From contig CAZSXU010000014.1 in NCBI GenBank assembly GCA_964610505.1, forward strand, positions 4,652-68,651: a DNA stretch of 64,000 nucleotides, read 5' to 3'. The translations under genes and the position numbers were made by a program. Positions 1,406 through 62,631 of this stretch are shown here, in pieces. The number at the start of each line of letters is the position of its first letter. Positions within the stretch are counted from its first letter, which is position 1. The notes beneath the pieces were generated by a model. That model had not been told where the DNA came from, made no database searches, and saw only the letters and a list, made by a program, of their open reading frames with translations. This stretch comes from an uncultured bacterium. GTDB lineage: Bacteria > Arandabacterota > Arandabacteria > JAGLYR01.

Positions 1406-1471
1406 CCTCGAAACGGTGAATGGGTGTGAGACCCGCGATGCGGAGCGGGTCCGGCAAGAAGGGAAGGGACC

Positions 1472-4703: not shown

Positions 4704-4796
4704 ATGCGGAAGCTTCGCAACGTTTCTGTTGCAGTGTTGCGCGACGTATGCTACGCTAGTTGCGTGGGCGGTCCACTGGGGGGATCCGGCCTTTGA
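4704..4796 (+). CDS. Candidate 30-aa small ORF (MRKLRNVSVAVLRDVCYASCVGGPLGGSGL); speculative
   Basis: ATG at 4704 with AGGTGA 5 nt upstream; stop TGA at 4794-4796. Lies in the intergenic gap between the radical SAM and the sigma-54 activator. Could be a chance ORF in GC-rich DNA. Confidence 0.15.
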   Translation: MRKLRNVSVAVLRDVCYASCVGGPLGGSGL

Positions 4797-4820
4797 AGGC
4801 CCCAAGACGAGGATGGAGAC

Positions 4821-27101: not shown

Positions 27102-28282
27102 GTGATTCTCCGCTCGTCCGCAGGTTGCTCCGGAATGCCGCCCGGTGCGGCGGGATCCGTCGACCCGCCGCCGGGATCCCCCCGCGGCGCCATCGGTCCG
27201 GGGACGGAGCTTTCGCTTCGCCTTCGGCTGCATTCTCGAACGAGCCCCCAGAACGATCCGATCGCAAAGGTAAGATTACCCATAAGAACGAAGACGGGCA
27301 CCGCGAGTCCCAACCGGGGCGAAACCCGAAAGGCCCTGGCCGAAAGCGGAGTGGAGAGAGCCAGCGAGGTGAGAACGAGACCCAGGCTCACCAGCCCCGC
27401 GAGTGGGAAGACCAGGGCCAGGGGAAGGAAGAGAAAGGCAAGGCCGAGGAGCAGAATCCCGGTTCTCCGGGACTGGGGAGTGCTCCTGTCCGTCGTGACC
27501 TTGTTCGGGTACCGGCGGTAGAGGGAAAACGCATACCTCGAGTACTCGAACTTCCTTCGCAGATAGATCCCCAGCGTCTCCGGATGGCGATGAAGGACAC
27601 GAGCGTCGGGAACGTAGATCATCCGGTGCCCGCCCTCCGCAAGCCGGAAGGACAACTCCACGTCCTCCAGCCGCCGGTAGCGCTCGTCGAACGGATGGTC
27701 GACAAGAAGCTGCCGCCGGAAGGCCGAGTTCCCCGATCCGACAAAGTCGGTCCGATCCCGCCCGGCCATTCGAGCATATCGCAGATCCAGCTCGAACTGA
27801 ACAAACCTCGCCATGACGGACTCTTGTTCCGAACTACACCGTCCCACCGTTCCTGCGAGCGTGGTGTCTTCCAGCAAAGGTCCCGTCAGTTTCCGCAGCC
27901 AATCCCGATCGGGGTCACAGTCCGCATCGATGAACGCGACAATGTCCCCTCTTGCCTCGAACACGCCTCGATTGCGGGCCCCGGCGGGTCCGTGTTTCTC
28001 CTGGCGGATAACACGGGCACCGAACGGGGATGCCGCATCGGAGACCCCTGCCGCGGAACCGTCATCCACGACCACGATTTCAAATTCTTCCGAAGGCACG
28101 GATTGGCGCCGGAGCGAGTGCAGACAGCGCACCAAGTCTTTCATCGCGTCTCGAACGGGAATGATGACGGAGATTCTCGGGTTCTGCGAAGTCACTGGGC
28201 CTCTCTCTCCCCTTCGGCGTCCGCTTCCGGCCGGTCTCGGCCTTTCCTCGAATAAGGTATCAGGTCCCGGCGGGCGGTACAA
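27089..28282 (-). CDS. Glycosyltransferase family 2
   Basis: ISVIIPVRDAM, VVVDDGSAAG, DADCDPDRDWL motifs; C-terminal TM helices. Confidence 0.8.
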   Translation of the reverse strand: MYRPPGPDTLFEERPRPAGSGRRRGERGPVTSQNPRISVIIPVRDAMKDLVRCLHSLRRQSVPSEEFEIVVVDDGSAAGVSDAASPFGARVIRQEKHGPAGARNRGVFEARGDIVAFIDADCDPDRDWLRKLTGPLLEDTTLAGTVGRCSSEQESVMARFVQFELDLRYARMAGRDRTDFVGSGNSAFRRQLLVDHPFDERYRRLEDVELSFRLAEGGHRMIYVPDARVLHRHPETLGIYLRRKFEYSRYAFSLYRRYPNKVTTDRSTPQSRRTGILLLGLAFLFLPLALVFPLAGLVSLGLVLTSLALSTPLSARAFRVSPRLGLAVPVFVLMGNLTFAIGSFWGLVRECSRRRSESSVPGPMAPRGDPGGGSTDPAAPGGIPEQPADERRITCGR

Positions 28283-28369
28283 CCCACAAGTGCGCCGGGC
28301 GCAAGTGCGCCGGGCGTCGATGCTCGGGTTCGCCGGCGGACGAAGGGCCCGACATTGAAAGTACAGAAC

Positions 28370-29509
28370 TCATGAGAATGGAGGCGGATGGCCCTCAGGG
28401 AGCCGGTCGAGGATTTCCGTGAGCGCCGCAATGACGTCGTCCGGCGAGATGGCTTCCATGCACTCGGGGTTCCCGCGCTCGCAGTCCTTCTGCGAGCAGG
28501 GCGAACAGGGAAGCCCGCCGTAGAGGACGATGTGATCGGGACCGAACGGTCCGAAACGCCGGGGATCCTGCGGCCCGATGAGGGCCACGACGGGGGTTCC
28601 GACGGCGGTTCCGACGTGCATGATCCCGGTGTCCACGGAGACCAGTGCGCTTGCCTGGGAGATCACGGCCACGGTTTTCTCAAGGTCGGACGAGCGGGCG
28701 ACGGACGCCGCTCCGATTCCCACCTCTTCGGCGATACTTTCCGTTTCCTCGGCTTCCTCGCGTGAACCGGTGATGATGACGCCCAGCCCGCGGCCGTCGC
28801 GGAGCCATCGGGCAACCTGCACGAACCGGTCCCGGGGCCATTTCCTCAAGGGAGAGGCCGCGCCGGGATGGATCACCGCAAATGTCTCAACGTCTCCCAC
28901 AAGGCCGGGTCTTTCCCGCTGGAACCACTCGAGCGCCTGTCCTGCAATCGGCAGAGAGGGCCGGACCCCGGACCCCGGCGGCTCGCAGTGTCCAACGATG
29001 CACAAGTTGGTTTCCACCTCGTGCGTCGGAATGAACCCGGGGTCGAAACCCAGTCGGGCCGCCCATCGCTTGATCTTCATCCGGATTCGAACGGTGCCGC
29101 GGTCGACGCGCTTCCCGGCGCCGGAGCGAGCGGCGTAGGCGAGCGATGCCCGGTCGTCCCGCAGGCCCACGATGAGATCGTAGGATCGTGACCGAAGCAC
29201 CGTCGAGAGGTTCGGGGCGACCCGCAACGGCGCGCCCCGGATGTATTCGGGGCTGGCATAGATCAGAATCCGATCCAGCGCCGGGTGGGCTTTCATCAGG
29301 GGCCGGGCCCAGGGACCGATCACTCCGGTGATCTCCGCCTCCGGATGGAGCGCCCGAAGATGGGAGAGGGCGGGCGTGGCCGTCACGACGTCTCCGAGGT
29401 GATCCAGCTTGAAGACCAGGATTTTCCTCACGGGGCGCCTGGAGAACCATCCTCGGGCGTTGACCAGGAGACTCACAAGAGCCGAGGCTATGAAGAAGGC
29501 ATACTCCAC
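28370..29509 (-). CDS. Glycosyltransferase family 9 (LPS heptosyltransferase-like)
   Basis: KILVFKLDHLGDVVTATPALSHLR start and overall GT9 layout. Confidence 0.8.
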   Translation of the reverse strand: MEYAFFIASALVSLLVNARGWFSRRPVRKILVFKLDHLGDVVTATPALSHLRALHPEAEITGVIGPWARPLMKAHPALDRILIYASPEYIRGAPLRVAPNLSTVLRSRSYDLIVGLRDDRASLAYAARSGAGKRVDRGTVRIRMKIKRWAARLGFDPGFIPTHEVETNLCIVGHCEPPGSGVRPSLPIAGQALEWFQRERPGLVGDVETFAVIHPGAASPLRKWPRDRFVQVARWLRDGRGLGVIITGSREEAEETESIAEEVGIGAASVARSSDLEKTVAVISQASALVSVDTGIMHVGTAVGTPVVALIGPQDPRRFGPFGPDHIVLYGGLPCSPCSQKDCERGNPECMEAISPDDVIAALTEILDRLPEGHPPPFS

Positions 29510-30672
29510 TCCGGGCTCCTCTCAGATTCCAACGTTCCGTCGAGCAAGCGGGCATACGTGTCCTTGTGCGCCTCGACCACGCGCCGCCAGGTGAAATGCC
29601 GAAGGACCCGCTCGCGCCCGGCCGCCGCCAGGCGGGCGCATGTCCGGGGATCGTGGTAGAGCTCCTCAAGGGCCCCGGCGAGCGCCACCGCATCTCCCTC
29701 CGGCACGACGACGCCTGCATCGCCGATCACCTCCGGAATAGCCCCCGAATCGGACCCGACGACGGGAACCTCGCACGCCATCGCCTCGATCAGCACCCGG
29801 CCGAACTGCTCCTTCCACGTGGGAGTCGTAAGCGAGGGGAGCACCAGGACGTCCATGAGGTTCATCCGGTCCGGGACCTCTCCGTGGGTGACGTTGTCGT
29901 CGATGACCAGACGATTCTCCCACCCCTCCGCCCGGGCGCGGGCCCGAACGGCGCCGGCCTCCGGTCCGCCTCCCACGACCAGCAGGCTCCAATCCATTCG
30001 GAGAAACGACAGGGCTTCGAGCAATACCCGGATTCCCTTGGCCGGAATCAGCCGGCCCGCGAACCCGATGACGAATTCCCGAATGCCCCGTTCGGATCCG
30101 GTTTTTTCCACCTCCCGTCTGCAGAACCGCTCCGGATCCACGCCGAAGGGGACGTGGCGGATGGGCCGGGTGAATCCTCGGGATTCAAGGACCCGTCGAG
30201 CTTCTCCCGAAGACACCAGTCCGCAATCCGACACCCTCTGGACGATCCGCTGAACTCCCCCGTAGAACCATGACGGGCGGCAGGGGTACCGGAAACCCGT
30301 GTTCAGGTTGTCGAAGGTGTAGAAGACAATCCGCGTCGCCGGACACATGCGTTTCGAGAGGAGCGCAACCTGGAGCGCCATCAGGCTGTAGGGTTCTTCC
30401 ATCAGCTGGAGCACGTCCGGGCGCGCGGCCCGAAGCGCCCGCCGAACGCCCGTGTAGAAGAATCCCCGGTTCTCGTATCCCCGGAATCCGGCCTTTCCCG
30501 TGAGAATCCTGTACCCCGACGCGTCTCTTCCGGCTCTGACCACCCTTCCTCCCTCGACCCACGTTTCGGGAACGAACACCGTCAGGTCGATGTCCGGGTC
30601 CGTCGAGAGAACGCGATACCGCTCTCTGAACACATCGACGCCACCCGTGTGATCCACCGCCAGAACCCGCAT
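29488..30672 (-). CDS. Glycosyltransferase family 4
   Basis: GT-B C-terminal domain with E-x7-E-like region (EQFGRVLIEAMACEVPVVGSDSGAIPEVI). Confidence 0.8.
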   Translation of the reverse strand: MRVLAVDHTGGVDVFRERYRVLSTDPDIDLTVFVPETWVEGGRVVRAGRDASGYRILTGKAGFRGYENRGFFYTGVRRALRAARPDVLQLMEEPYSLMALQVALLSKRMCPATRIVFYTFDNLNTGFRYPCRPSWFYGGVQRIVQRVSDCGLVSSGEARRVLESRGFTRPIRHVPFGVDPERFCRREVEKTGSERGIREFVIGFAGRLIPAKGIRVLLEALSFLRMDWSLLVVGGGPEAGAVRARARAEGWENRLVIDDNVTHGEVPDRMNLMDVLVLPSLTTPTWKEQFGRVLIEAMACEVPVVGSDSGAIPEVIGDAGVVVPEGDAVALAGALEELYHDPRTCARLAAAGRERVLRHFTWRRVVEAHKDTYARLLDGTLESERSPEWSMPSS

Positions 30673-30673
30673 C

Positions 30674-32119
30674 TCAATTCTCCGAACCGTTGTCCCGCCG
30701 GGAGAGAACGGCGTCCCGAATTTGTTTCCTCTCCTCCGGACGGATCGCCCGCGTCAGCAGAAGGGTCGCCGCATAGACACCGGCCCCCACGGCCACCGCC
30801 CCGGCCAGGTTGAGCGAATCCCAGGCGAGAAGGACGGCCGTCATGGTACATCCGGAGACGGCCAGCTTGACGAGCCGCGCGGGGCTCAGCCGAACGCCCG
30901 TGTAGCGGATCACCAGGAAGGAGAACAACCCGGCCAGAAGTACCTGAGTCACGAGCGTCGCCCGGGCCGCGCCCAGATGCGCGTACCTCGGAATCAGAAT
31001 CAGGTTCAGCGCCACGTTGACGACGACCCCGACCAGGGAACAGTAAAACGTGATCTTCTGCCGGTCGATCGCGCCCAGGACGACACCGAGGAAGTTGTTG
31101 ATGAAGACGAAAAAGAGGGCGGCGCCGATCCAGCGAAGCACGGGGATCGTCTCCACATATCCTTCGCCGAAGAGGGTCCACACGATGCGGTCGCTGACCA
31201 GAGCCAGTCCCAGGGCCATGGGCAGCCCGAAGGCCATCATGAATTCCCAGGCCCCCGCAACGGCCGTTCGCAGCCGGTCCTCCGAAGTCGTCTTGAGCTT
31301 TGAGAGGGTCGGGAACACGGTGTTGATGAAGGCGGCCGGCAGGTACACCAGTCCTTCCAGCAGCCGATATCCCGCGCTGTACCATCCGACGTGTCGGCTT
31401 CCCTTCATGGCCGAGAGCATCACCACGTCGATTTTGAAGTAGACCAGTCCGAGCACCAGCGCCAGGGCAAAGGGCGTGGCTTCTCGGATCAGCAGTCGCC
31501 AAAAGGCGAAATCTACTTTCGGTGTGAACCGGAATCCCATCTGGCGCGACAGAACGGGCATCGAAATAACGAGATTCAGGGCCGCCTCCAGAAGAAAAAC
31601 CAGAGCGATCCAGACCATCCCCAGACCCAGGTGAACCACGAGTAGCCCGACGAGAATGGCGACCAGTTTGCTCACGACCATGATGATGGACGGGAACTCC
31701 ATCTTTTCCCGGCCGAAGAAGACGGAGTTGGACGTGGCGTAGAGTCCCGCGATGGACGTCGAGATTGCGGCGATGTAGACCGGTCCGAGCGTGGCGGTCG
31801 TGGCGCCCGTGTGGAGAGCGATGAACACCGTCAACGGGATGGAGATCACCGAGAGGGTCATGCGGAGCGACAGGACGTTGGAGAAGTACCGCGCCGCCTC
31901 TTCCGGGCGCCGGGCCACGGCGCGCGTGATGACCGAAGAAAACCCGAACTCGACGAGAATGCCGATGAGACTTCCGAGAGAAAAGGCATAGGTCAGGTGT
32001 CCGAACCGGGCGTCTCCCAGGTGGCGGGCGATGATGGCCAGCCAAACCAGACCCAGGATTTTCACCGTGACCTGACCGGCGAACATCACGCTGGAATTGA
32101 ACAGGACCCTACGAAGCAT
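30674..32119 (-). CDS. Polysaccharide flippase (Wzx/MOP superfamily)
   Basis: 481 aa, about 12-14 TM helices, polysaccharide-biosynthesis-protein layout; between a GT and the ligase-like gene. Confidence 0.8.
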   Translation of the reverse strand: MLRRVLFNSSVMFAGQVTVKILGLVWLAIIARHLGDARFGHLTYAFSLGSLIGILVEFGFSSVITRAVARRPEEAARYFSNVLSLRMTLSVISIPLTVFIALHTGATTATLGPVYIAAISTSIAGLYATSNSVFFGREKMEFPSIIMVVSKLVAILVGLLVVHLGLGMVWIALVFLLEAALNLVISMPVLSRQMGFRFTPKVDFAFWRLLIREATPFALALVLGLVYFKIDVVMLSAMKGSRHVGWYSAGYRLLEGLVYLPAAFINTVFPTLSKLKTTSEDRLRTAVAGAWEFMMAFGLPMALGLALVSDRIVWTLFGEGYVETIPVLRWIGAALFFVFINNFLGVVLGAIDRQKITFYCSLVGVVVNVALNLILIPRYAHLGAARATLVTQVLLAGLFSFLVIRYTGVRLSPARLVKLAVSGCTMTAVLLAWDSLNLAGAVAVGAGVYAATLLLTRAIRPEERKQIRDAVLSRRDNGSEN

Positions 32120-48474: not shown

Positions 48475-49029
48475 CTACTCGCGCAGGAATGCGAAGATTC
48501 TGGTGAAAGCCCAGATGGTGGGGATACCGGCGAGAAGCGTTGCGGCCACGGCCATGACCAGAGGACGAGACAACACCTCCAGCGCAGAGACCTGTTCCAG
48601 CGGCACATCCGCGGCTCGGGCCAAGAATCCCATGACCGCATCCCCGATCCATGCGACGGGTGCGGCAAGTCCCTGGACCACGGGCTCCATCAAAGCGGGG
48701 AGAATGCGCGCCAGGTCCGTTCTGAACACGAGAAGGAGTGCGGAACCGACGGCAAATGCAAATACCGGAACCAAATTGGCCCAACGTTGCGCCCTCTTCT
48801 CCGCCGCGCGATCGCTGATTGCTTTCTCGGTAACCCGCCGGGCGAAATCGGCCGATAGCCCGGAGGGCAACTCCTGGACCAGAGCCTCGTGGATTTTCTT
48901 CTGCAGGAGGAGTTCGGCCCGGCACCGGCGGCAGCCCGAGAGATGGGCCTCGAGCTCCGTCATCCGGCGCTCGGGGAGTGATCCCTCCAACATTCGGGCA
49001 ATCCACTCCGTGTAGTCGAGACAGGTCAT
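48475..49029 (-). CDS. Anti-sigma factor (zinc-finger HxxxCxxC type, membrane-spanning)
   Basis: HLSGCRRC motif near the N-terminus, TM helices in the C-terminal half; start overlaps the stop of the ECF sigma gene by 4 nt. Confidence 0.6.
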   Translation of the reverse strand: MTCLDYTEWIARMLEGSLPERRMTELEAHLSGCRRCRAELLLQKKIHEALVQELPSGLSADFARRVTEKAISDRAAEKRAQRWANLVPVFAFAVGSALLLVFRTDLARILPALMEPVVQGLAAPVAWIGDAVMGFLARAADVPLEQVSALEVLSRPLVMAVAATLLAGIPTIWAFTRIFAFLRE

Positions 49030-49769
49030 CCGGTCTGCCCCCCATTGCTCACCGCATCGCCCGAGGGTCCGGCGACGAGGTCGGCAAGGTCCGTACTGGC
49101 GAGGACCAGTTCCCTCAGGCGGAGCTTGGCCCGGTGGATGTAGGTTTTGACCGTTCCCAGGGGAATCCCCATGATCTCGGCGATCTCCTCGTAGCGGGCC
49201 TGGTTGACGTAGAAGAGCGTGAGTGCCGTCCGCTGCCGCGCCGGCAGCTGCTCCACCAGGGCCTGAATGTTCTCGGACAGATCCAGCTGCTCAATTTCCT
49301 CTTCGAGGTCGGTTCGCGACGGGGGAAGCAGGCGGTGGACTTTCTCGTCGCCCTCTTCCTCCAGTGAGAGATGCTCGCCGCGCCGCCCGCGCTTTCGGAG
49401 TTCCGAGAGGCAGAGGTTGTGAGCGATCTTGTAGATCCAGGTGCTGAACTTGCTCCCGCTCCTGAAACCGGGGATCGCACGATAGACTCTGAGAAACACT
49501 TCCTGAGTCAAGTCCTCACCCTCCAGGCTCCCCACCATCCGCCTCACGAGCCAGTGAATTCGATGTTGGTACCGCGTGACGATCTCGGCGAAAGCCTCGT
49601 GGTCCTCCTCCCGGCACCGCTCGACCAGTTCCTCGTCCGTCCGTTCCGCCACGGGTCTCTTGTCGTCCACCGTCGATTCCGGGTTAAGAGGCTCATGAGT
49701 CCAGTCCGCCGGGGGCGGTGAGATTGCTCCTGTTCCATCGTAATCGGCTTCGGCAGGACCTGCAAGCAC
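49026..49769 (-). CDS. ECF-subfamily RNA polymerase sigma-70 factor; start uncertain
   Basis: Region 2 (LTQEVFLRVYRAIPGFRSGSKFSTWIYKIAHNLCLSELRK) and region 4 (TALTLFYVNQARYEEIAEIMGIPLGTVKTYIHRA). Confidence 0.85.
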   Translation of the reverse strand: MLAGPAEADYDGTGAISPPPADWTHEPLNPESTVDDKRPVAERTDEELVERCREEDHEAFAEIVTRYQHRIHWLVRRMVGSLEGEDLTQEVFLRVYRAIPGFRSGSKFSTWIYKIAHNLCLSELRKRGRRGEHLSLEEEGDEKVHRLLPPSRTDLEEEIEQLDLSENIQALVEQLPARQRTALTLFYVNQARYEEIAEIMGIPLGTVKTYIHRAKLRLRELVLASTDLADLVAGPSGDAVSNGGQTG

Positions 49770-49978: not shown

Positions 49979-50368
49979 ATGAACTGGCTACCTTTTATGA
50001 TTCCCATTACCTTCATTCTGGGCGCTTTTGCCGTGGGCATCGTGGCGGTGATCATGAAGTCCAAGGCAAAGGATCGTCAGCACCAGGAGCGTATGTTCTT
50101 GGCCGAGAAAGGATTGCCGGTTCCCCCCGAGCTCTATGAGGTTTCCGAGGAAAAGAAACCCAGCGAGTTTCGGGGGTTTCGTGCGGTCCTCATGGTGCTC
50201 GGGTGCGTCACGACGCTCGTGGGGGTTTCGGTCATGATCGCACTGGGTGTTCGGGACGGCATGCAGGACGGCATAAACGGTGTGATTCCTCTTCTGATCG
50301 GCATCGGGATTCTGGTGGCCGAGAGGATGATCAACACCCTCATCGTGAAGCCCGGCAGGGAACAGTAA
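49979..50368 (+). CDS. Hypothetical small membrane protein
   Basis: 129 aa, 2-3 TM helices; SD-like GCAAGGGGGTG before the ATG. Its stop codon is the first base triplet of the 44-bp repeat array. Confidence 0.5.
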   Translation: MNWLPFMIPITFILGAFAVGIVAVIMKSKAKDRQHQERMFLAEKGLPVPPELYEVSEEKKPSEFRGFRAVLMVLGCVTTLVGVSVMIALGVRDGMQDGINGVIPLLIGIGILVAERMINTLIVKPGREQ

Positions 50369-50997: not shown

Positions 50998-51663
50998 ATG
51001 AGGTTCGCTACGTTTCTGACCCTGATCTCTCTGTTTGGATTGACGGCGATTGCCCACGCGGGCGTTCCTCCGACCACGAACAGATTGGATGGGGACCCCG
51101 TCGCTGACGGCGTGGAGTGCATCGTGCTGGATTCCTGTGTCCAATGTCCGGCGGACGGCATTCCCGAGAACGAGGACCCCTGCTACGACTGGTATGCCAT
51201 CCCCGACATATGGAACGGCGGCTGCAATTCCGACCCGCCCATTTTCCAGATTCTCGACCCGACCTGCGAGGGGTCCATCTCCGTCTGCGGGTGGGGTGGG
51301 ACGGACCCGGGCGGCATGGGCTGGCGAGACACGGACTGGTATGAAATCACCCTGGTCGAGCCCAGCCAGATCACCGTGTGCGTGGTCGCCGAGATTCCCG
51401 TCAATCTGTTCATCATCGACGCCGCCGCCGGCTGCGCCACCACGGTGATCCTGCACGAGGCATATGCGACGGTCCCGTGTGAACCGGTGTGCATCCAGAC
51501 CGCGCTCGCCGCAGGAACCTACTGGCTGTGGGTCGGAGCCAACGACTTCTACAGCATCCCATGTGGGCAGTACCTGCTGACCGTTGATGGATACTACCCG
51601 GAAGGCGGACCGTCCGCCACGGAACGGACATCCTGGAGTACGATGAAGAACCAGTACAAGTAG
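50998..51663 (+). CDS. Secreted Cys-rich protein with PPC-like domain and conserved C-terminal tail
   Basis: Perfect SD GAGGAGG; signal peptide MRFATFLTLISLFGLTAIAHA; DTDWYEITL...NLFIID resembles a pre-peptidase C-terminal (PPC) domain; ends ...TSWSTMKNQYK. Confidence 0.55.
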   Translation: MRFATFLTLISLFGLTAIAHAGVPPTTNRLDGDPVADGVECIVLDSCVQCPADGIPENEDPCYDWYAIPDIWNGGCNSDPPIFQILDPTCEGSISVCGWGGTDPGGMGWRDTDWYEITLVEPSQITVCVVAEIPVNLFIIDAAAGCATTVILHEAYATVPCEPVCIQTALAAGTYWLWVGANDFYSIPCGQYLLTVDGYYPEGGPSATERTSWSTMKNQYK

Positions 51664-51814
51664 ACCAAACACGAACCTCAGCAATCCGGAAAAGGAGCCC
51701 CGCGGGTGCGGGGCTCCTTTTCTGTGACGGGGCGCCTTGTCCCCTCTAAGTGAAGGATCTGCAAGACCCCAATGATGATGCGTAGCCCGTCGCTGCGGGA
51801 ATCCACGATCTCGT

Positions 51815-52558
51815 TCAGCGGGTGGAAGAGCTGCGGGATTCTGACGATCGGTCCCCTGGGGGATAGATCTTGGTGGCCTCGTGGATGGCGGCGGCGCCGA
51901 AGAGCAGGGGAGTCCACGTGACCCTCGCAAAACCCGCCTCTCGAAGCATCGCCGCCAGTTCCTCTGCCCCGTAGAACCTGGGGATCGTATGGGAAAGATA
52001 CCGGTATCCGGCGCCGGAACCCGAGATGAGTGTACCGAGGGGGCGGACGGTGAGCCCGACGTAGAAATGGAACAACGTGCGGATGAGGCGGGATTGCGGC
52101 CGGCTCGTTTCAAGGTTCACGAAACGTCCCCCGGGCTTGAGGACTCGCGAGTACTCACGAAAGGCGCCAACGAGCGCCCCGCGGTTGACGTTCAGATTGC
52201 GCGTGGCGAAGGACATGGTGACGGCGTCGAAGGTATCGCCGGCAAACGGAAGCGCCCGGGCGTCGCCGAGAACCGGATCGACGCCCCGCCCCTCGGGCTT
52301 CTCCACCAGCGGGCGGAGCATGGGCAGACAGAAGTCGCAGGCGACGACGGTCGTTTCGTTTCCTCCCAGGCGCCGAAGATAGGCGGCCGTCTCACCCGTC
52401 CCGGTGCATATGTCCAGCCACCGCTCGCCCCCCCGGCGCGCCGCGAGCGCCGCAGCGCGCTTGCGCCACAGAATATCCATGCCCAGCGTCAAGACGTGAT
52501 TCACCGTCTCGTAGGTGCGGGGTACTTCGGAAAAGATCTTCTGAATGCCGTGGTTCAC
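51815..52558 (-). CDS. ubiE: Demethylmenaquinone/ubiquinone methyltransferase (UbiE/MenG)
   Basis: Start at GTG 52558. Matches E. coli UbiE by recall across the length: YETVNHVLTLGMDILWRKR, LDICTGTGE, ARALPFAGDTFDAVTMSFATRNL, RVLKPGGRF, YRYLSHTI. Confidence 0.85.
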   Translation of the reverse strand: MNHGIQKIFSEVPRTYETVNHVLTLGMDILWRKRAAALAARRGGERWLDICTGTGETAAYLRRLGGNETTVVACDFCLPMLRPLVEKPEGRGVDPVLGDARALPFAGDTFDAVTMSFATRNLNVNRGALVGAFREYSRVLKPGGRFVNLETSRPQSRLIRTLFHFYVGLTVRPLGTLISGSGAGYRYLSHTIPRFYGAEELAAMLREAGFARVTWTPLLFGAAAIHEATKIYPPGDRSSESRSSSTR

Positions 52559-52793
52559 GGGTTGCCGCCTTCGCGGGCCGGGAGCGGCCGCTTCTACACA
52601 TTCCGAGCCGACAGAGTGTAGCAAAGAACCGAAACAAGCAAAAGCAATCCTGAAAAAAGACAAAAGGTCCGAGGATTCGGTGCCGATAAGGAACACGAAG
52701 GGGCGTTCGTGGGGAGAATCGAGAACCGCAGACCGGCCCGCCCGAGACCGTGTGGGGGGCCTGCATCCGAACACGAGATGAGGGGATCTGCTC

Positions 52794-53453
52794 ATGAAGA
52801 TGGTCATCGGGATCTGCATTTGGGCGTTTTTCGGATTGAGTCCGGTGAGTTCTGCTGTGGGGGCTCTGGAGGTTTTTCATCTGGAGAGCGACGAGGCACT
52901 GCTCGAGATTCTCCCGGAGGAAAACGTAGCTTTTGTCGCGGAGGGGAGAATCGGGGATCTGGGCGGAGCCGCCATGTTTGAACTGGATCTCGGTCAATCC
53001 GTCGGCGCCCCGGCCGTTACGGATCAGCACGACTGGCAAAGCGGCGTGACGGAGGCGTTCTCTCTCACCTATGACAAGACGTGGAACCGGGTCGACTTCA
53101 CGATCGGAGAGACGATGCTCCAATACACGCCCGGCCAGCTCTTCATGGAAATCTTCGTTCGAGCTTGGGCCGAGGATGCCGGCACGTCCATCTCTCTCGA
53201 GGATCTGATCCTCAACGGAGAGAGTGTGCCCGCGACCTGCGAAGCGACCGGCGCCGCCGGCCTGGACATCCTCCGAATCCGGGGCGGGACCCTACTTGAC
53301 GGATTCGTTCTCACCGGAACGGCGACGATGGAATGGTCGGCAAGCCCGCCGACGGAGTCCGGGCTCTCTTTCCAAATCAACGCCGGATCCCCGGACACCC
53401 AGGTTGCTACGGCAAAAGTCACCTGGGGACAGATCAAGAATCGATTCCGGTAG
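52794..53453 (+). CDS. Secreted hypothetical protein sharing the C-terminal tail of 50998..51663
   Basis: Signal peptide MKMVIGICIWAFFGLSPVSSAVGA; ends ...VTWGQIKNRFR; SD-like GAGGGG upstream. Confidence 0.5.
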   Translation: MKMVIGICIWAFFGLSPVSSAVGALEVFHLESDEALLEILPEENVAFVAEGRIGDLGGAAMFELDLGQSVGAPAVTDQHDWQSGVTEAFSLTYDKTWNRVDFTIGETMLQYTPGQLFMEIFVRAWAEDAGTSISLEDLILNGESVPATCEATGAAGLDILRIRGGTLLDGFVLTGTATMEWSASPPTESGLSFQINAGSPDTQVATAKVTWGQIKNRFR

Positions 53454-56154: not shown

Positions 56155-58242
56155 TCACCGTGTGACATAGAACGTCGTACTTGTCCCCGTCTCGGTACCG
56201 GCCACGGTGTCCTGAATGCTTAGCGTCAGAACGTATCGACCGAACCGCAGGGGCGCGAGATCCAGCGACAGCCGCCGGGGCGAGAATGAGGACGCGCCCT
56301 CGTATGTGAAGGTATTGGCGATGTGAGGTGGGGTTGAGGGCTTTCTCCGGAAGAGCCGGCGGATTCCTTCCCAGAGACCCCCGGCATCTTCGACGTCGAT
56401 CGGAATGACCCGCACGGTTGCCTTGAAACTCGAGCGGCCGCTCCCGTCCAGCGCCAGGCCGTAGACCTCGTAGTAGAAATGGACAGGCTTCGCGCGGCGG
56501 AAGCGGCGGGTCGGCTCCGGCTCGACGGTCAGATCCCCTTTATCGAACGGAGTTCTTCCGGGGGAGGGGCGGATGGCTCTTGCCAGCTGGATGTCGCTGA
56601 TCATCAGACTCGAAGAATCAAAGGCCCTGACGTCAAGCGCCACCTCCGTAAGGCCGATCAGTTCCTCTCGCTCATCCTCCACCGAGATGGCCGCCAGGTA
56701 TCGGCCCGGGAGTAGATTGTAGTCGCTCTGATGAATGAGCGCCCCTCTTCGCACATTCGTCAGCGTGCCGGAGACCTGGGTGATGACGGTGGTGGTTTCG
56801 CGGGCCACGATCTCCCAGTCTTCGTTGTAGATGAGGATTCGTCTCAGGAGTTTCTCCGTCCAGACATCGCCCTCCTTCACGAACCCCAGATCCTCCGCAG
56901 GGACGGCATAGTAGATTTCCTGCCGGGTGATTCCGGGATCGCGGAGGAATGAGCAGGCGTCCGCGATCATTCGAATCTGTGTCCCCTCGTACAGTGGAAG
57001 ATGGAATTCCGGAATCTCGCGGATCATCGTCTCCCAACGCCTCGCATCCGTTCTCCCCTCGTCGAAGGCGAAGCCGAACTGCCCGTCGAGGAAGCGATCG
57101 CGAAACGTGAGCTGGAAATGCTTGCCCTCCATCTCGTAGGTCCACACCTCAACCGGGCGGGGATTGCGCTCGACCTGGTCGTCCTCCATCCCGAGGGCAA
57201 TTTCGTCCTTTCTCAGTTTCCTTTTTGTCTCATCGAGGAAGGAAGCCCGTTCCAGCGGGGGGCCGTACCGGATGTGGGACTGGCCCCGTGCGGAATCCCG
57301 GCCTCGAAGACCGGCCCTGGGAGCTTCGAATCGAAGATCGGCCTGAAGGATACGCCGCCAGTGTTCGAGAAGACGTTCGTTTGCCTCCGTGCTCAGGTCG
57401 GGATCGCGGTTCCGCCACAACCGGCGCCCGAACTCCGCCACGACTGCGGCGTCGGCCTCCCCGGATCCGAGTCCGAGGTTCTCCGCGTACCCGTCGATCC
57501 CGAGAAACAGGGCTCGGCTCTCGCGACTCGTCTCAAGGATGGCGTTCCAGTACGCCTCCTCCGCTTCCTCCAGTTTCCCCCGGCCCTGGAGGGCCGCGCC
57601 ATACTGGAAAAGCGCTTCCGTGTCGGAGGGATCGTCCACGAGGATCCGGAGGAGAGCTTCCTCGGCCATGCCATATTCCTCCAGCTCGTTGGACACCCGG
57701 CCCAGGGTATAGAGCAGATCCCGGTCGGTGGAGCCCTTGTCGTAACCTTGGACAAGGAGGTCGTATGCCTTCCGCAGGTCCTTGTCCTGGTCCCGCCAGC
57801 GCCGGATGTAGATGGCGCCGCATTCCACGTAGGCCTCGGGTCTCTCGGGGGCCACCTCGATGGTCTTCAGAAAAGATTTCTCCGCATACCGGTCGAAGGA
57901 CTGGGCGGCCTGGACCCGACCGAGCGCCAGATGGTAGTCGGCGTTCTGCGGATCGTACCGAATGGCGAGCTCGTATGCCTCGGCCGCCAATCTTCGCGCC
58001 TCGATGGTGTTCAGCCGGAAATAGGCCTCGGCCAGCCGGGCGTGAGCATCGGCGAACTTGTAGTCCTCGTGGACGGCCGCACGGAATTCCTCGATGGCCT
58101 TGTGGGTGTCTCCCTGTTCAAGAAGAGCCACGCCGGCATCGTAGTGAGGGCGGGGTTTTTCGTCCCTGGCCTCGGCCGCGTGGCCGAGACAAATCGCAAA
58201 TGCGATCAGAGAGATCACGACCGCTTGTCGAGAAGTGACCAT
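56155..58242 (-). CDS. TPR + GWxTD-like domain protein (paralog 1), secreted
   Basis: Signal peptide MVTSRQAVVISLIAFAICLGHA; N-terminal TPRs; central FGRRLWRNRDPDL...GLRGRDSARGQSHIRYGPP resembles the GWxTD domain core with W replaced by R. Confidence 0.65.
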   Translation of the reverse strand: MVTSRQAVVISLIAFAICLGHAAEARDEKPRPHYDAGVALLEQGDTHKAIEEFRAAVHEDYKFADAHARLAEAYFRLNTIEARRLAAEAYELAIRYDPQNADYHLALGRVQAAQSFDRYAEKSFLKTIEVAPERPEAYVECGAIYIRRWRDQDKDLRKAYDLLVQGYDKGSTDRDLLYTLGRVSNELEEYGMAEEALLRILVDDPSDTEALFQYGAALQGRGKLEEAEEAYWNAILETSRESRALFLGIDGYAENLGLGSGEADAAVVAEFGRRLWRNRDPDLSTEANERLLEHWRRILQADLRFEAPRAGLRGRDSARGQSHIRYGPPLERASFLDETKRKLRKDEIALGMEDDQVERNPRPVEVWTYEMEGKHFQLTFRDRFLDGQFGFAFDEGRTDARRWETMIREIPEFHLPLYEGTQIRMIADACSFLRDPGITRQEIYYAVPAEDLGFVKEGDVWTEKLLRRILIYNEDWEIVARETTTVITQVSGTLTNVRRGALIHQSDYNLLPGRYLAAISVEDEREELIGLTEVALDVRAFDSSSLMISDIQLARAIRPSPGRTPFDKGDLTVEPEPTRRFRRAKPVHFYYEVYGLALDGSGRSSFKATVRVIPIDVEDAGGLWEGIRRLFRRKPSTPPHIANTFTYEGASSFSPRRLSLDLAPLRFGRYVLTLSIQDTVAGTETGTSTTFYVTR

Positions 58243-58248
58243 GGATTC

Positions 58249-58276
58249 ATTATCCGACTGTAGCCGGGCATGTCAA
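58249..58276 (-). promoter_or_regulatory. Candidate promoter TTGACA-N16-GATAAT ending 6 nt before the ATG (near-leaderless)
   Basis: Minus strand: TTGACA (plus 58271-58276), 16-nt spacer, GATAAT (plus 58249-58254), then gaatcc, then ATG at 58242. Confidence 0.4.
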
Positions 58277-58417
58277 GGTCCGGATACGGACGGGACGGCG
58301 GGTCTGCGAATGGACCCGACGAGGCAACCATTCTGTCATTAAACCCGGCAGTAGCCCGGGCATCCTGCCCGGGATGGCGTCCCCAAGATCCCAGAGGTTT
58401 CGTCGTGTTCGCCTGTT

Positions 58418-58852
58418 TCACAAATGCCTGACGTCGAGGCCGGTTCGGCGCGAAACCGTCTCGGCGAGACGGCTGCGATGACAGCGCCGCACGTCCTTTT
58501 CCACGCAGACGAGAACAGAGGGGGTGGTCTTCACGAGCTCGGCCAGTCGCTCAAGGGCGTCTTCCTGTTCGGGCAGGATTTCGTGCTCGTACTTGTCGAG
58601 GAGATGCTGGTATGACGCGTCATCTGTGAGATTCTTCCGGAGCTCTTTCGGCACGCCGAGGTCCGGCATGTGTACGTACCCGAGGCCGAGCTTCTCTCCG
58701 GTTTCGCTGAATTGCCTCTTGGAGAAACCATATCGCCGGGACACCGGATCGGCTCGCACGTCGACGATACACCGGATGCCCTCTTTCAGAAGCGGGTCGA
58801 AGAAGGCATCAACCGACTTTCCCTCGTAACCCGCTGTGTACACGGCAGGCAT
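58418..58852 (-). CDS. DUF488 family protein
   Basis: 144 aa; YTAGYEGKS...IRCIVDVRADPVSRRYGFSK resembles DUF488 (YeaO-like) by recall. Confidence 0.6.
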   Translation of the reverse strand: MPAVYTAGYEGKSVDAFFDPLLKEGIRCIVDVRADPVSRRYGFSKRQFSETGEKLGLGYVHMPDLGVPKELRKNLTDDASYQHLLDKYEHEILPEQEDALERLAELVKTTPSVLVCVEKDVRRCHRSRLAETVSRRTGLDVRHL

Positions 58853-58884
58853 GGTCTCCTCCTGTGTGTGCTCTGTGCACGCTG

Positions 58885-60933
58885 CTAGCGCGTGATATAC
58901 AGCGATGTGCTCCGCGCGGTTCGTGTGTCGGCCACCAGATCATGCACGCCCACGGTCACACGGTAGACGCCGGGTTTCAGCGTCGTAAGATCCAGCGACA
59001 GGTGCAGGGGGGCGGAGCCGGATGGATACCGGTGCGTGAAAGTACTGGCGATGTGCGGGGGCGTGGACGGTTTCCGGCCGAACAGCCGTCGTGCGGCATC
59101 CCAGAAGCTCTCTTCCTCTTCGACGTCCAGAGGAATCACGCGCACCGTGGACTTGAAGTGGGATTGCGCGCTCTCATCCAGGGCGAGTCCATAGACCTCG
59201 TAGTAGAGATTCACGGGCTTGGAGCGCCGGAAGCGGTGAGAGGGCTCGGGTTCCACGCGCAGGGAGACCTTATTGAACCGGCTCTTGCCCGTGGCGGGCT
59301 TGATCGAGCGGGCCAGCTCGATGTCGCTGATCTCCAGTTCCCGGCCTTCGAAGGTCCGGGCGACGATTCCGACCTCGGTCACTCCCAGCACCTCGGCGGC
59401 GGCGTCTTCCACCTGAACGGCCGCAAGGTAGGTCCCGGGTTTGAGATCGAAGTGGCACTGGTCGACGATCTGGGCGTCCCTCAGCAGCTCAAGGGAACCG
59501 GCCGGCTCGGTGATCACGGTCGTGGATTCCGCCGCCACCACGTGCCAATCCCGATCGTAGATCACGATTCGCCTCTCGAGTTTGCTGCTCCACCCCTCGG
59601 GGTCCTTCCGGAAGTGGAGCTCCCGTCCCGGCACCGTGTAGTAGATTTCCTGGTGTGTCTCACCCCGGATGCGGGAGAAAGAACAGGCGTCCGCGATCAG
59701 GCGAATCTCCTTGCCCTCGTATTCGGGCACGTAGAATTCAGGCAGCTGCCGAACGAGGATCTGCCAGCGCTTGGCCGACCCTCCGTCCTTTTCGGGTTCG
59801 AAGTCGAACGGAAAGCCGAATTCTCCGTTCAAGAAGCGGTCTTCGAATCGGAAGCGGAACCTGTGGCCTCCGATGTGGTAGCTCCACATCTCGTTGGGCC
59901 GGAGATTCTCGGCGATGTAGCAGGTCATCTCCGTCGGCGGACCGTAGCGGACGTAGGATCGGCCCCGGTCGGAGTACCGGCCCTTGAGCCCCGTCTTCTC
60001 CGAGGTGAAGTAGAGGTCCGCCTTGAGAATCCTCCGGTAGTGCTCGAGAAGCCGTTCGTTGACCTGGGTGGCGAGATACGGATCGTGCTCCCGCCAGAAT
60101 CGCCGCGCCAGCTCCGCCGTGCTGTCCGGATCGATCTTGCGAAGAAACCTCTGCAGCGGCTGGGACGCCACCTCTTCGATTCCGAGGAAGACCAACTTGT
60201 CCTGCACGTCCATTGCGGAGATCGCCCGGGCGTACTGAGTTTCCGCCTCCTCCAGCCGCTCCAGGTCATGGAGCGCCAGGGCCATCACGAAGCGCATTTC
60301 CGTGTCGTCCGGGTTCATCTCAAGCGTTCGCGTCGCGATGTCCAGCGCGGTCTCGGGATCCTCCCTCTCTATCGAAAGCCGGGCGAGATGGAACAGGATG
60401 TCGCGATCGGTGGAGCCCCGGTCGGAGGCTTCTTGAAAGCAGTCGTGGGCTCGCTCCAGATCGTCGTCGTACTGGCGGAAGGTGAGCCAGCGACGGATGT
60501 AAATGAGGCCCCGTTCGAGGTAAGCCTCGGTCAGTTCGGGGTCGATCTCGATGGCCTTGCGGAAGCAGGCCTCCGCGTACCGATCGAATGTCTGGTTCAC
60601 GTAGACTCTGCCCAGCGCAAGCTGGTAGTCGGCGTTGTCGGAATCGTACCGAAGGGCCAGACGATACTCTTCGACGGCGAGGCGGCGGCCTTCGATCGTG
60701 TCGAGAGCCGCGTAGGCCTCGGCCAGCTTCGCGTGAGCGTCGGCGAACTTGAAATCCTCGTGTACGGCCCGGCGGAGAGTCTCGATTGCTTCGCTGAAGT
60801 TGCCCTGGTCCAGGAATCTGAGGCCAAGATGGTAGCTGCGCAGGGCCTCGTCGCGGCCGGCGTGCGCCTGCCCTGTGAGAAGAAACACAAGGACTGCCAA
60901 GACTAAGCCAACGTACCGGTGATGGCGGTTCAT
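58885..60933 (-). CDS. TPR + GWxTD-like domain protein (paralog 2), secreted
   Basis: Start set at first ATG 60933 (MNRHHRYVGLVLAVLVFLLTGQAHA) rather than the upstream GTG at 60960, because the conserved promoter lies in between. Core ARRFWREHDPYL...GLKGRYSDRGRSYVRYGPP. Confidence 0.65.
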   Translation of the reverse strand: MNRHHRYVGLVLAVLVFLLTGQAHAGRDEALRSYHLGLRFLDQGNFSEAIETLRRAVHEDFKFADAHAKLAEAYAALDTIEGRRLAVEEYRLALRYDSDNADYQLALGRVYVNQTFDRYAEACFRKAIEIDPELTEAYLERGLIYIRRWLTFRQYDDDLERAHDCFQEASDRGSTDRDILFHLARLSIEREDPETALDIATRTLEMNPDDTEMRFVMALALHDLERLEEAETQYARAISAMDVQDKLVFLGIEEVASQPLQRFLRKIDPDSTAELARRFWREHDPYLATQVNERLLEHYRRILKADLYFTSEKTGLKGRYSDRGRSYVRYGPPTEMTCYIAENLRPNEMWSYHIGGHRFRFRFEDRFLNGEFGFPFDFEPEKDGGSAKRWQILVRQLPEFYVPEYEGKEIRLIADACSFSRIRGETHQEIYYTVPGRELHFRKDPEGWSSKLERRIVIYDRDWHVVAAESTTVITEPAGSLELLRDAQIVDQCHFDLKPGTYLAAVQVEDAAAEVLGVTEVGIVARTFEGRELEISDIELARSIKPATGKSRFNKVSLRVEPEPSHRFRRSKPVNLYYEVYGLALDESAQSHFKSTVRVIPLDVEEEESFWDAARRLFGRKPSTPPHIASTFTHRYPSGSAPLHLSLDLTTLKPGVYRVTVGVHDLVADTRTARSTSLYITR

Positions 60934-60939
60934 ATTCCC

Positions 60940-60967
60940 ATTATCCGCCCGATCACGCACTCGTCAA
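60940..60967 (-). promoter_or_regulatory. Candidate promoter TTGACG-N16-GATAAT ending 6 nt before the ATG (paralogous to 58249..58276)
   Basis: Minus strand: TTGACG (plus 60962-60967), 16-nt spacer, GATAAT (plus 60940-60945), then gggaat, then ATG at 60933. Confidence 0.4.
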
Positions 60968-60984
60968 GGGCGTCTGGAGAATCG

Positions 60985-62631
60985 TCAGAAGGGAACTCGC
61001 ACGCCGAGGGTCAGCATGCCCGTCGACGGATCGCCCGTCAGGCTGAGCCCTGCCGAGGCGGATTCGGGACGTTCGGGAACGAGGAGCGCGGCGTCCACCA
61101 GGCTGTAGAGGTAGATTCCCACGGAGGCGGCCAGGAACATCCGGCGGGTCGCCTTTCGGTCCTCGACGCGGTCGTGCCGCCGGTGGGCCTCATCCCAGGC
61201 CGAGGAAATGGTCTCCGGAGACACCTGGTTCAGGTACCGGTTCCAAGCGGTGTCGTATTCCTTCACCGCTTCGTTGTACGCGTCCGTCGTGATGAGGAGA
61301 CCGAACAGGGAACCCAACTGGGCCGCGGGGAGGAGAATGCTCCGAATTCTCTTTTCCTGGTGCCGCTGGCTCCAGCCGGGGATCAGGATTCGATAGAATC
61401 CACCTTCGTCGGACTTCGGGGCCCACTCCGGCTCAAGAAGAATCTCCTCGTTGGGAAGCACGTTTGCCTCGATCTCGATGGTCCGGTAGCCTGGAGCCCG
61501 AAGGCGGAAGGTCCGCATCCCCGCTACGACCGGCTGAGCCAGGACGGGCGCCCGCCACGTTTCCCTGCTCTCATCGAGCAGCGCCACGGTCGCCCCCGCC
61601 GGCGACGTGCCCCGAAGGGTGACGTATCCCCTGAGAGGATTGAGCGTCACGCGGAGATCGGAATTCGCCCCCGGGAGGACATCCGTCCTCAACCGGTACT
61701 CCTCGTACCCGGGAAGGCGGAAGACGAACCGCCGCTCTCCGAGCGGGACCGCCCACCTGAGCGGTGTGGTTCCAAGCAGCTCGCCGTCCATTTCGATCCG
61801 CGCTCCCGGAGGGCTCGAGAGGAGATGAATCGAGGTTCGCTCGGCCTCCAGCTCAACCGCCAGTGTCTCCGAGGCCCCTTCGGTGAATTCGATCGTCTGC
61901 GTCCACACCTGGTGATTCTCGAGATTCAGGGTGACCTCCGTCCGGCCCGGCCGCACGGAGTTGATGATCGCGGGGGTTTGTCCCTTGGGGTGGTCTCCGA
62001 AGTAGACCCGGGCGCCGGCGGGTTCGGATCGAACGACCAGCTTGGCCGGAACCAGAAGACGCGCATCGAGTCTCGATTCCTCCCCGGCCCGAATCTCCAC
62101 GGTTGCACGGTAGTCGGCGAATCCTTCGTGGTGGATTCGAAGATCGTGATCCCCGGCGGGGATCACGGGAAGGTGGAGAGGAGTGTGTCCTTTCTCCTCG
62201 CCGTCCAGAATGACGAGAGCGTCCTCGGGCGTCGAGAACACCCAGAAGGTTCCTCGGCCATCATTGAGCGTGAGTTCAACCGTCGTGAGTTCACCCACAC
62301 CCACGCGCACGCGAGTGGAGGCAAAGAGGCCGGCCTTTTCCGCTTGTACCAGGTGCCATCCCGACTTGAGCGGGAGGGGGGCCAGGGGAGTGACCCCCTG
62401 AAGTTCCGAATCGACTCGAACCCGGGCGCCCGCAGGGTACGTTGTGACGAGGAGATTCCCCAGATCGAGCAGCAGGTCTCCCGGAGGCGGCCCGAACGAA
62501 TTCGCTCCCGCATCCCGGCCGCCGCCCTCAGGGGCCGAGTCGAAACCGAATACCGGCAACGCTGCGAGAACGCCCATCAGCAGGATGAAAGTTCCCGGAA
62601 GCGTCTTGTTGCCGAGCCTGAGAATCTGCAT
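60985..62631 (-). CDS. PEGA domain-containing protein
   Basis: Signal/anchor then at least five P-x-G-A-x-V repeats (YPAGARVRV, PEDALVILDGEEKGHTP, PAGARVYFGDHPKGQTP, PPGARIEMDGELLGTTP, PAGATVALLD) and a C-terminal TM segment. Confidence 0.7.
   Translation of the reverse strand: MQILRLGNKTLPGTFILLMGVLAALPVFGFDSAPEGGGRDAGANSFGPPPGDLLLDLGNLLVTTYPAGARVRVDSELQGVTPLAPLPLKSGWHLVQAEKAGLFASTRVRVGVGELTTVELTLNDGRGTFWVFSTPEDALVILDGEEKGHTPLHLPVIPAGDHDLRIHHEGFADYRATVEIRAGEESRLDARLLVPAKLVVRSEPAGARVYFGDHPKGQTPAIINSVRPGRTEVTLNLENHQVWTQTIEFTEGASETLAVELEAERTSIHLLSSPPGARIEMDGELLGTTPLRWAVPLGERRFVFRLPGYEEYRLRTDVLPGANSDLRVTLNPLRGYVTLRGTSPAGATVALLDESRETWRAPVLAQPVVAGMRTFRLRAPGYRTIEIEANVLPNEEILLEPEWAPKSDEGGFYRILIPGWSQRHQEKRIRSILLPAAQLGSLFGLLITTDAYNEAVKEYDTAWNRYLNQVSPETISSAWDEAHRRHDRVEDRKATRRMFLAASVGIYLYSLVDAALLVPERPESASAGLSLTGDPSTGMLTLGVRVPF

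Follow-up and report, generated by a model that had tools for sequence, protein, structure and literature searches.

The window analyzed here is a stretch of 64,000 nucleotides from contig CAZSXU010000014.1 of an uncultured bacterium (lineage Arandabacterota) that is recorded from metagenome assemblies (JGI 3300017987, ENA ERZ27256778, Logan SRR6963311). Two secreted proteins encoded in it, A and B, are unrelated in their main parts and share a short C-terminal tail. The tail is a conserved module that is locked to the C-terminus, occurs on many unrelated cargo proteins of the Sec type, and substitutes for known anchors at the point where these join homologous cargo. It has no transmembrane helix, and it probably is a modular sorting or docking tag read by a dedicated protein of the cell envelope. 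Neither a model of the tail, in Pfam-A (2025) and NCBIfam 20.0 (June 2026), nor a description of it, in the literature (open-access papers and preprints), was found, in agreement with an earlier note on the window, made from the letters alone, which had not recognized it as a described signal.

A tail common to two otherwise unrelated proteins

Both open reading frames (ORFs) reported in the earlier note are present (Table 1) and are separated, as it stated, by a UbiE-type methyltransferase gene on the opposite strand. The signal peptides it assigned to both proteins are of the signal peptidase I type, called by eye from the sequence: MRFATFLTLISLFGLTAIAHA/G in A and MKMVIGICIWAFFGLSPVSSA/V in B, each with a basic n-region, a hydrophobic core and a site of the A-x-A type. 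The C-termini are ...ATERTSWSTMKNQYK in A and ...ATAKVTWGQIKNRFR in B. Their similarity is real, but the count of 9 matching positions out of the last 15 has to be corrected to five identical and five conservative ones. Among the 566 stop-to-stop ORFs of at least 60 codons in the window, only A and B have an end of the form W-x-x-[ILMV]-K-x-x-[FYW]. The remaining parts of the proteins are indeed unrelated: in a comparison of the A-family and B-family profiles only the last 35 columns align (probability 89.6%, E 1.9e-6), and the predicted folds are different. The tails share only 28 of 48 nucleotides and thus are not a DNA repeat.

Protein A has no match in Pfam or NCBIfam, and no Pfam hit even at E<=1. 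AlphaFold2 (AF2) models of both proteins were built on the family alignments. The model of A has mean pLDDT 82.9, exceeding 90 in the strands of residues 93-197. Foldseek finds ColG collagen-binding/PPC domains and the C-domain of the C. perfringens enterotoxin (E about 1e-5); for the ColG collagen-binding domain and the B. anthracis PPC domain, E is 2e-5 to 5e-5 and the target-normalised TM-score is about 0.7. Thus the modelled cargo of A resembles a PPC/collagen-binding jelly roll by fold, but not by Pfam sequence family; the earlier note had called A "PPC-like". Protein B belongs to the choice-of-anchor W family: it scores 163.8 bits with NF041928 over residues 11-198, where the cut-off is 45. 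Its model has mean pLDDT 88.0, a first beta-strand beginning at residue 26, and a concanavalin-A-like lectin fold by structure comparison. The nearest named relatives of A and B come from metagenome-assembled genomes (MAGs) of Eisenbacteria and Latescibacterota. Most relatives of A (P0002-P0054) have about 345-365 residues and a tandem pair of Cys-rich domains that are PPC-like. In the window copy the N-terminal one of the pair is missing entirely, while the signal peptide and the tail are kept; the reading frame upstream of it closes at 50971.

Conservation, spread and exchange of the tail

Homologs of A and B were retrieved by whole-protein similarity, so that the selection is dominated by the cargo domain and not by the tail. 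The pattern W-x-x-[ILVM]-K is present within the last 22 residues of 53 of the 55 relatives of A and of all 120 listed relatives of B. The tryptophan precedes the end by exactly nine residues in 49 of these 53 and in 107 of these 120 proteins. Tryptophan and lysine do not vary while the identity of the cargo is about 40-50%. The tail of A aligns with SPVExxSWxTIKALYR, the consensus of 51 homologs, with W213 and K217 invariant; an alignment of 65 homologs of B shows no variation at W211 and K215. The overall consensus is [P/V/A]-[V/T]-[P/A]-[V/T]-E-x-[S/T]-[T/S]-W-G-x-[I/V]-K-x-L-Y-R-COOH. Positions -17 to -11, [P/V/A]-[V/T]-[P/A]-[V/T]-E-x-[S/T], carry 1.1-1.9 bits each; they lie upstream of the pattern used in the genome scan below and are not biased by that search. 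Of the K-N pair in the earlier motif, the lysine is general, as is the tryptophan, but the asparagine is peculiar to the copies of A and B. The window copies (…WSTMKNQYK and …WGQIKNRFR, that is K-N-x-[FY]-[KR]) are atypical variants of the general form [ST]-W-G-x-[IV]-K-x-L-Y-R. Beyond this motif, some 8 more residues on the upstream side are conserved.

The codon usage of the tails is varied, with four glycine, six arginine and several leucine codons and all three stop codons. Therefore selection acts on the peptide. A DNA repeat or a mobile cassette was rejected on the basis of these variable codons and the 28/48 nucleotide identity. Of 121 tailed proteins, 72 have a cysteine at a distance of 13-24 residues from the end, and C-x(1-4)-P-[V/T] is a frequent form of this site; the B family has no such cysteine. 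It could be a disulfide staple or a part of the signal.

The genomes of 185,579 species, one genome each, were scanned with a DNA pattern back-translated from [ST]-W-G-x-[IVM]-K-x-L-Y-R-stop. At least 120 loci with at least 131 matches were found, versus about 17 matches expected by chance over the whole collection (our own calculation, uniform base composition). The counts of carriers, neighbours and hosts given below rest on the 120 loci listed (L001-L120), all of which are from MAGs. The host labels are Eisenbacteria (27 loci), Krumholzibacteria (11), Latescibacteria (9), Fibrobacteraceae or Fibrobacter sp. (7) and Gemmatimonadota (3), with one locus each in Zixibacteria, Cloacimonadota, Effluviviaceae and 'Udaeobacter'; 59 loci are labelled just 'bacterium'. 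Lineages of the Fibrobacteres-Chlorobi-Bacteroidetes (FCB) group account for 60 of the 61 taxon-labelled loci. The proposal of the earlier note hinged on the existence of other carriers, and these are found both among the homologs and at the at least 120 further genomic loci.

Each of the listed matches terminates an ORF. An N-terminus of the Sec type, by a crude hydrophobicity test, is present in 92 of the 109 complete carriers, and 7 of these 92 have a lipobox. The median carrier has 231 residues (interquartile range 202-259). When the signal peptides and tails were removed from 123 tailed proteins (A, B and 121 others), the remaining sequences formed at least 72 clusters (BLASTP, E<1e-4). 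Domains identified in the carriers by Pfam and NCBIfam include beta-helix/NosD, lamin-tail (LTD), CHRD, cupredoxin, NHL, M10 and M12B metalloproteases, carbohydrate-binding modules (CBM), ExeM-type nuclease and DNRLRE. Some carriers belong to families known elsewhere as PEP-CTERM or MYXO-CTERM proteins (ScyF, PepA, MXAN_2677). Among the 5287 ORFs of at least 80 codons in these loci, the relaxed core motif occurs 150 times at the C-terminus and 3 times internally. The flanks contain 24 more tailed ORFs outside the scanned pattern, often tandem paralogs. A tail-only profile search of a 5.8-billion-protein database collected 13 candidates and gave 7 short fragments, the word index being ill-suited to a motif of 10 residues.

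Tandem arrays of 4-5 tailed paralogs are frequent, as in L036 (about 2400-5630), L023 (60-4110), L080 (4200-7580) and L021 (1-2400). Some members of the arrays have degenerate or extended tails, e.g. ...KSWGEIKTFFAEHDKTGRP.

The sole point in favour of a chance resemblance between A and B is the shortness of the motif. Against it stand its occurrence in 2 of 566 window ORFs, its conservation in 173 of 175 homologs, and the at least 131 pattern matches where about 17 were expected. The earlier note named the end of a shared known domain as another explanation. However, A and B have no domain in common by Pfam, NCBIfam or profile-profile comparison, and no model of either collection covers the tail. 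Both explanations were rejected, and we consider the chance that either is correct to be practically nil.

In both AF2 models the end of the beta-sandwich is followed by a lower-confidence linker of 12-15 residues and then by a helix of 7-8 residues that begins exactly at the tryptophan (residues 213-219 in A; residues 211-218 in B, after a linker at 199-210 with pLDDT about 63). The spacing of W, I/V, L and Y, at positions i, i+3, i+6 and i+7, places them on one face of this helix, with lysine and arginine alongside. The hydrophobic moment of the consensus tail at 100 degrees is about 0.5-0.6. Tryptophan at i and lysine at i+4 have the geometry of a helix-stabilising cation-pi pair, and the invariant pair probably stabilises the helix or makes a contact.

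The cargo of B is found elsewhere with other ends. A search of 1.84 billion representative proteins with the tail-less core of B (residues 25-198) gave 449 relatives with E<=1e-3. Of the 150 that matched best, 27 end in the tail considered here, 72 end in a PEP-CTERM-like manner, that is with a proline motif, a hydrophobic stretch and a basic cluster, and 51 have longer, truncated or other ends. The choice-of-anchor W domain in these 150 proteins is thus combined with alternative C-terminal anchors. The tail and the PEP-CTERM-like ends both begin straight after the same last strand, ...LAFQIKVG. PF07589 was detected in all eight PEP-CTERM-like ends tested, in six of them above the gathering score. 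Similarly, one homolog of A (P0052, ending in ...VPTLSEWGMILLSLL...RRQ) has an IPTL-CTERM signal (PF18203, 39.7 bits) at the site of the tail.

The tail itself has no Pfam or NCBIfam hit, either in the 123 full proteins (E<=1e-3 or 1e-2) or in isolated tails (E<=10). This is not an artefact of sensitivity, since the same tool detects the PEP-CTERM and IPTL-CTERM motifs of 24-28 positions. In particular, neither A and B nor the 121 other tailed proteins and the isolated tails match PEP-CTERM (PF07589/TIGR02595). The tail also lacks the transmembrane segment and the Arg-rich cluster of that signal, as there are nine residues from the tryptophan to the end and lysine and arginine are interspersed among them; the absence of such a helix had been seen correctly in the earlier note. 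IPTL-CTERM (PF18203/TIGR04174) was not detected in the tailed proteins, with P0052 serving as a positive control. There was no NCBIfam hit to WGxxGxxG-CTERM (NF038039) in the 123 proteins or the isolated tails, and none of A, B and the 121 other proteins matched the C-terminal domain (CTD) of type A of type IX secretion systems, T9SS (PF18962/TIGR04183; FlgD_ig, PF13860).

Candidate functions of the tail

The tail is most likely a sorting or docking tag, because it sits where other bacteria have known surface-sorting signals. The earlier note had proposed a sorting, anchoring or recognition tag. The at least 72 unrelated clusters of cargo and the exchange with PEP-CTERM and IPTL-CTERM at one junction support this proposal. 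Recognition by a dedicated envelope protein is favoured because the motif is locked to the C-terminus and substitutes for sorting signals that are read by enzymes. A protein receptor is favoured because the identity of residues, beyond amphipathicity, is conserved across phyla.

A possible mechanism is as follows. The tag would consist of a flexible linker rich in Pro, Val, Thr and Glu and of the nine-residue W-G-x-[I/V]-K-x-L-Y-R at or near the free C-terminus. The protein would be exported by Sec across the inner membrane with removal of the N-terminal signal peptide, and the folded single-domain cargo would be free in the periplasm. There the tail would fold as a short amphipathic helix, one face of which carries W, I/V, L and Y. 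A lineage-specific envelope protein would bind it and retain the cargo on the cell surface or deliver it there. In this way the tag may serve in the FCB group the role that PEP-CTERM/exosortase or IPTL-CTERM signals have on homologous cargo elsewhere. We infer the function of the tail and its machinery, and likewise recognition by a protein rather than by lipid, the destination of the cargo, and whether the tail is kept or cleaved.

Several observations weigh against a tag read by an envelope protein. No conserved partner, candidate receptor or enzyme was found in the neighbourhoods of the 120 loci, nor was a co-occurring processing enzyme, which the earlier note had advised looking for, seen there; the clusters of ORFs from these loci were limited to T9SS-CTD proteins, Ser/Thr kinases, ABC ATPases and housekeeping genes. 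The exchange of anchors demonstrates equivalence of position and not of function, so it is an argument by analogy. The helix is predicted in models of monomers, and with no more than moderate confidence (block means 63-80). All hosts are uncultured. About 10% of tails have 1-10 extra residues beyond the motif, and in one subclade of B the last residue is E, Q or D rather than R/K. Therefore strict readout of the carboxylate of a terminal arginine is unlikely.

One possibility is that the amphipathic helix binds a membrane leaflet directly, like the C-terminal helices of E. coli PBP5/6, needs no dedicated receptor, and holds the cargo on the periplasmic side of either the inner or the outer membrane. 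This is consistent with the lysine and arginine that flank a single helical face of W, I/V, L and Y, with the hydrophobic moment given above, and with the position of the predicted helix on a flexible tether. However, nine residues make less than three helical turns, and the affinity is weak by our rough estimate on an interfacial scale. Moreover, such helices usually conserve a pattern, whereas W, G and K of the tail are essentially invariant over phyla and at least 72 families, and the cargo is largely of extracellular type (proteases, nucleases, CBMs, lectin-like domains). We consider such an in-plane anchor rather unlikely. Another possibility is an element that has nothing to do with sorting, for example a helix for oligomerisation, a cap within the molecule or a tag for proteolytic stability, that was acquired convergently or spread by recombination. 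Short C-terminal helices can indeed mediate oligomerisation, and no machinery was found near the listed loci. On the other hand, it is implausible that a cap made for one fold is shared by at least 72 unrelated folds, the flexible linker separates the tail from the domain in both models, and the tail is enriched on proteins with Sec signals and stands in for bona fide sorting signals at one and the same junction. Thus a self-association or regulatory role seems very unlikely.

Finally, the tail might be a minimal T9SS signal, either a drastically shortened CTD or a mimic of its last strand, that brings small cargo to the T9SS translocon or the PorV shuttle, with or without cleavage of the PorU type. 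Indeed, the host lineages belong to the FCB group and use T9SS, classical FlgD_ig/Por_Secre_tail CTD proteins are encoded in 28 of the 120 loci, and a C25 peptidase with a type A CTD is encoded in the window too. The tail and the local CTDs have ends of one kind, K-x-hydrophobic-hydrophobic-basic (...IKALYR and ...RKMVLLK, respectively). In Prevotella intermedia, short and long CTDs are both functional, but the short ones retain motifs B, D and E and the cleavage-site motif, and about 60 positions can be aligned (PMC11969387). With about 17-20 residues the tail is much shorter than a T9SS CTD, as the earlier note had observed; it has no G..Y or GxY motif, its predicted structure is helical, and it fails all T9SS models. 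In addition, the same genomes keep full-length CTDs on other, much larger proteins (median stop-to-stop ORF of CTD proteins near tailed genes 749 residues versus 231 in tailed carriers), which suggests two separate signals. The tail is not a member of the T9SS CTD families, since it has neither motifs B, D and E nor the alignment of about 60 positions, and we consider its being a minimal signal of that system unlikely.

Some other known signals were discarded as well. Lipoprotein sorting was rejected in view of the 7 lipoboxes among 92 carriers of the Sec type. A type I secretion signal, which goes with export through ABC/MFP/TolC and the absence of a Sec signal peptide, was rejected given the Sec-type N-termini of A, B and 92 of the 109 complete carriers listed. 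The beta-signal of outer membrane proteins, substrates of BAM, has an aromatic last residue and alternating hydrophobic residues in a last beta-strand and does not fit the final R/K (sometimes Q, E or D), the helical spacing, and the soluble beta-sandwich cargo.

Returning to the tag read by an envelope protein, there is about an even chance that it represents a previously unrecognised sorting system of FCB-group candidate phyla and the first widespread short C-terminal signal without a transmembrane helix. If so, Eisenbacteria, Krumholzibacteria, Latescibacteria and some Fibrobacterota, Gemmatimonadota and Zixibacteria would have a putative envelope machinery that reads the tail in the periplasm, with a scope comparable to that of PEP-CTERM/exosortase or the T9SS CTD; judging by the tandem arrays and the local density, many cargo proteins per genome are possible. 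In phyla of sediment and soil that are abundant but uncultured, the tail marks a large group of small proteins of surface type that currently have no annotation (lectin-like domains, proteases, nucleases, cupredoxins). A profile model of it would improve the annotation of these MAGs and provide a handle for phylogenetic profiling of the machinery.

Genes of the window and comparison with known signals

The features of A and B are listed in Table 1.

Table 1. Positions of genes A and B, their parts, and the gene between them in the window
Feature	Positions	Strand	Basis
Gene A, secreted protein of 221 residues: signal peptide, one PPC-like beta-sandwich, C-terminal tail	50998..51663	+	ORF
Signal peptide of A, residues 1-21, AHA/G	50998..51060	+	read from sequence
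Cargo domain of A, beta-sandwich, residues ~50-197	51145..51588	+	AF2, fold matches
Tail of A, PSATERTS-WSTMKNQYK, residues 205-221	51610..51660	+	homolog consensus, AF2
Predicted helix in the tail of A, W213-Q219	51634-51654	+	AF2
UbiE-type methyltransferase (PF01209), between A and B	51815..52558	-	family match
Gene B, secreted protein of 219 residues: signal peptide, choice-of-anchor W domain, C-terminal tail	52794..53453	+	ORF, NF041928
Signal peptide of B, residues 1-21, SSA/V; alternative site A24/L25	52794..52856	+	read from sequence
Choice-of-anchor W cargo domain of B, residues 25-198	52866..53387	+	HMM match
Tail of B, SPDTQVATAKVT-WGQIKNRFR, residues 199-219	53388..53450	+	outside NF041928 model, AF2
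Predicted helix in the tail of B, W211-F218	53424-53447	+	AF2

Immediately upstream of A (48.4-50.4 kb) there are an ECF sigma factor gene (49026-49769, minus strand) with a zf-HC2 anti-sigma factor gene just downstream of it, and a gene for a DUF6249 membrane protein (49979-50368, plus strand); no link of these genes to the tail was established. The region 56155-62631 (minus strand) encodes two large TPR proteins, one with a weak hit to the GWxTD domain, and after them a protein with a PEGA domain. Although TPR proteins are able to bind C-terminal peptides, this trio is not conserved beside tailed genes at the 120 loci. Two M16 (pitrilysin-type) peptidase genes lie beside a gene for a radical SAM enzyme, at 11-2953 (plus strand) and 3112-4596 (minus strand). 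An envelope glycan cluster (16555-18306 and 27089-32119, both on the minus strand) encodes GT2, GT9 (heptosyltransferase-like) and GT4 glycosyltransferases and a Wzx-type flippase; genes for a membrane glycosyltransferase resembling Agl23/STT3, by weak hits, and for a sulfatase (25113-27233) lie close to it.

A gingipain-family protein of 1249 residues (20920-24672, minus strand) consists of a C25 propeptide, a C25 peptidase, a C25 Ig-like domain and a T9SS type A CTD. Its identification as the PorU sortase was rejected (78 bits against a cut-off of 420), and it is a T9SS cargo protein or a divergent relative, not a PorU equivalog. Judging by the domains of this protein, the genome uses classical T9SS signals alongside the tail. 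The T9SS CTD resembles the tail in its FCB-group neighbourhood, its C-terminal position, Sec-exported cargo of extracellular type and a basic end after hydrophobic residues. The difference lies in the structure, an Ig-like beta-sandwich in one case and a linker with one short helix in the other. T9SS CTDs are described as Ig-like beta-sandwiches of 5-7 strands (PMC11285876).

Among functional analogies, the S-domain of secretins has a disordered C-terminus that becomes a short amphipathic helix upon binding to the pilotin lipoprotein, and the C-terminal amphipathic helix of PBP5 binds the membrane; both set localisation in the envelope. These are features of single families, whereas the tail is portable and occurs on dozens of families.

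IPTL-CTERM signals are mainly proteobacterial. They share with the tail a local [S/T]-x-W-G-x-I string after a Pro-Thr/Val motif, but run on into a transmembrane helix and a basic cluster, whereas the tail stops after nine residues. The beginning of the IPTL-CTERM signal of P0052, '...VPTLSEWGMI...', resembles 'P-[VT]-E-x-x-[ST]-W-G-x-I' of the tail; this similarity was not detected by hidden Markov models (HMMs). By these strings, the tail might be derived from a tripartite signal that has lost its transmembrane helix, and it might have common ancestry with IPTL-CTERM.

Like the tail, the PEP-CTERM/exosortase signal is a short module, stands at the C-terminus and occurs on many proteins of surface type that are unrelated, exported by Sec and mostly small. 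It follows the cargo domain after a short linker, at the same junction in choice-of-anchor W homologs, and both have a motif with proline, P-V-E in the tail and P-E-P in PEP-CTERM. Unlike PEP-CTERM, the tail has no transmembrane helix, no arginine cluster and no HMM match, and it is about 10 residues shorter (median 23 versus 32 residues past the core motif). In L057 and L085, minus-strand ORFs ending in ...PPVPEPGTLALLSTGILGFGIAFRRRLIG and ...PPVPEPATLLLLSSGLVGIGVILRRRLCD have apparent PEP-CTERM ends, judged by regular expression and by eye, within a few kb of tailed genes. If these are genuine, the two signals would coexist in one genome in two MAGs.

LPXTG, PEP-CTERM and the T9SS CTD each led to a dedicated enzyme or secretion machine and are used routinely in the prediction of surface proteins. 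The described short C-terminal sorting signals are tripartite, with a signature motif, a transmembrane helix and an arginine cluster (10.1101/2023.06.07.544157). LPXTG, PGF-CTERM, GlyGly-CTERM, MYXO-CTERM and the orphan WGxxGxxG-CTERM (NF038039) have the same genomic discovery signature as the tail: they are found at the C-terminus, a lineage has many carriers, paralogous as well as unrelated ones, and the taxonomic range is restricted (10.1101/2023.06.07.544157). The cysteine upstream of the tail recalls the signature motifs that contain cysteine, but it is not invariant and is absent in the B family. The tail shares this comparative-genomic signature yet breaks the tripartite rule, as it has the signature motif alone and lacks the transmembrane segment and the arginine cluster. 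Therefore its recognition must work differently.

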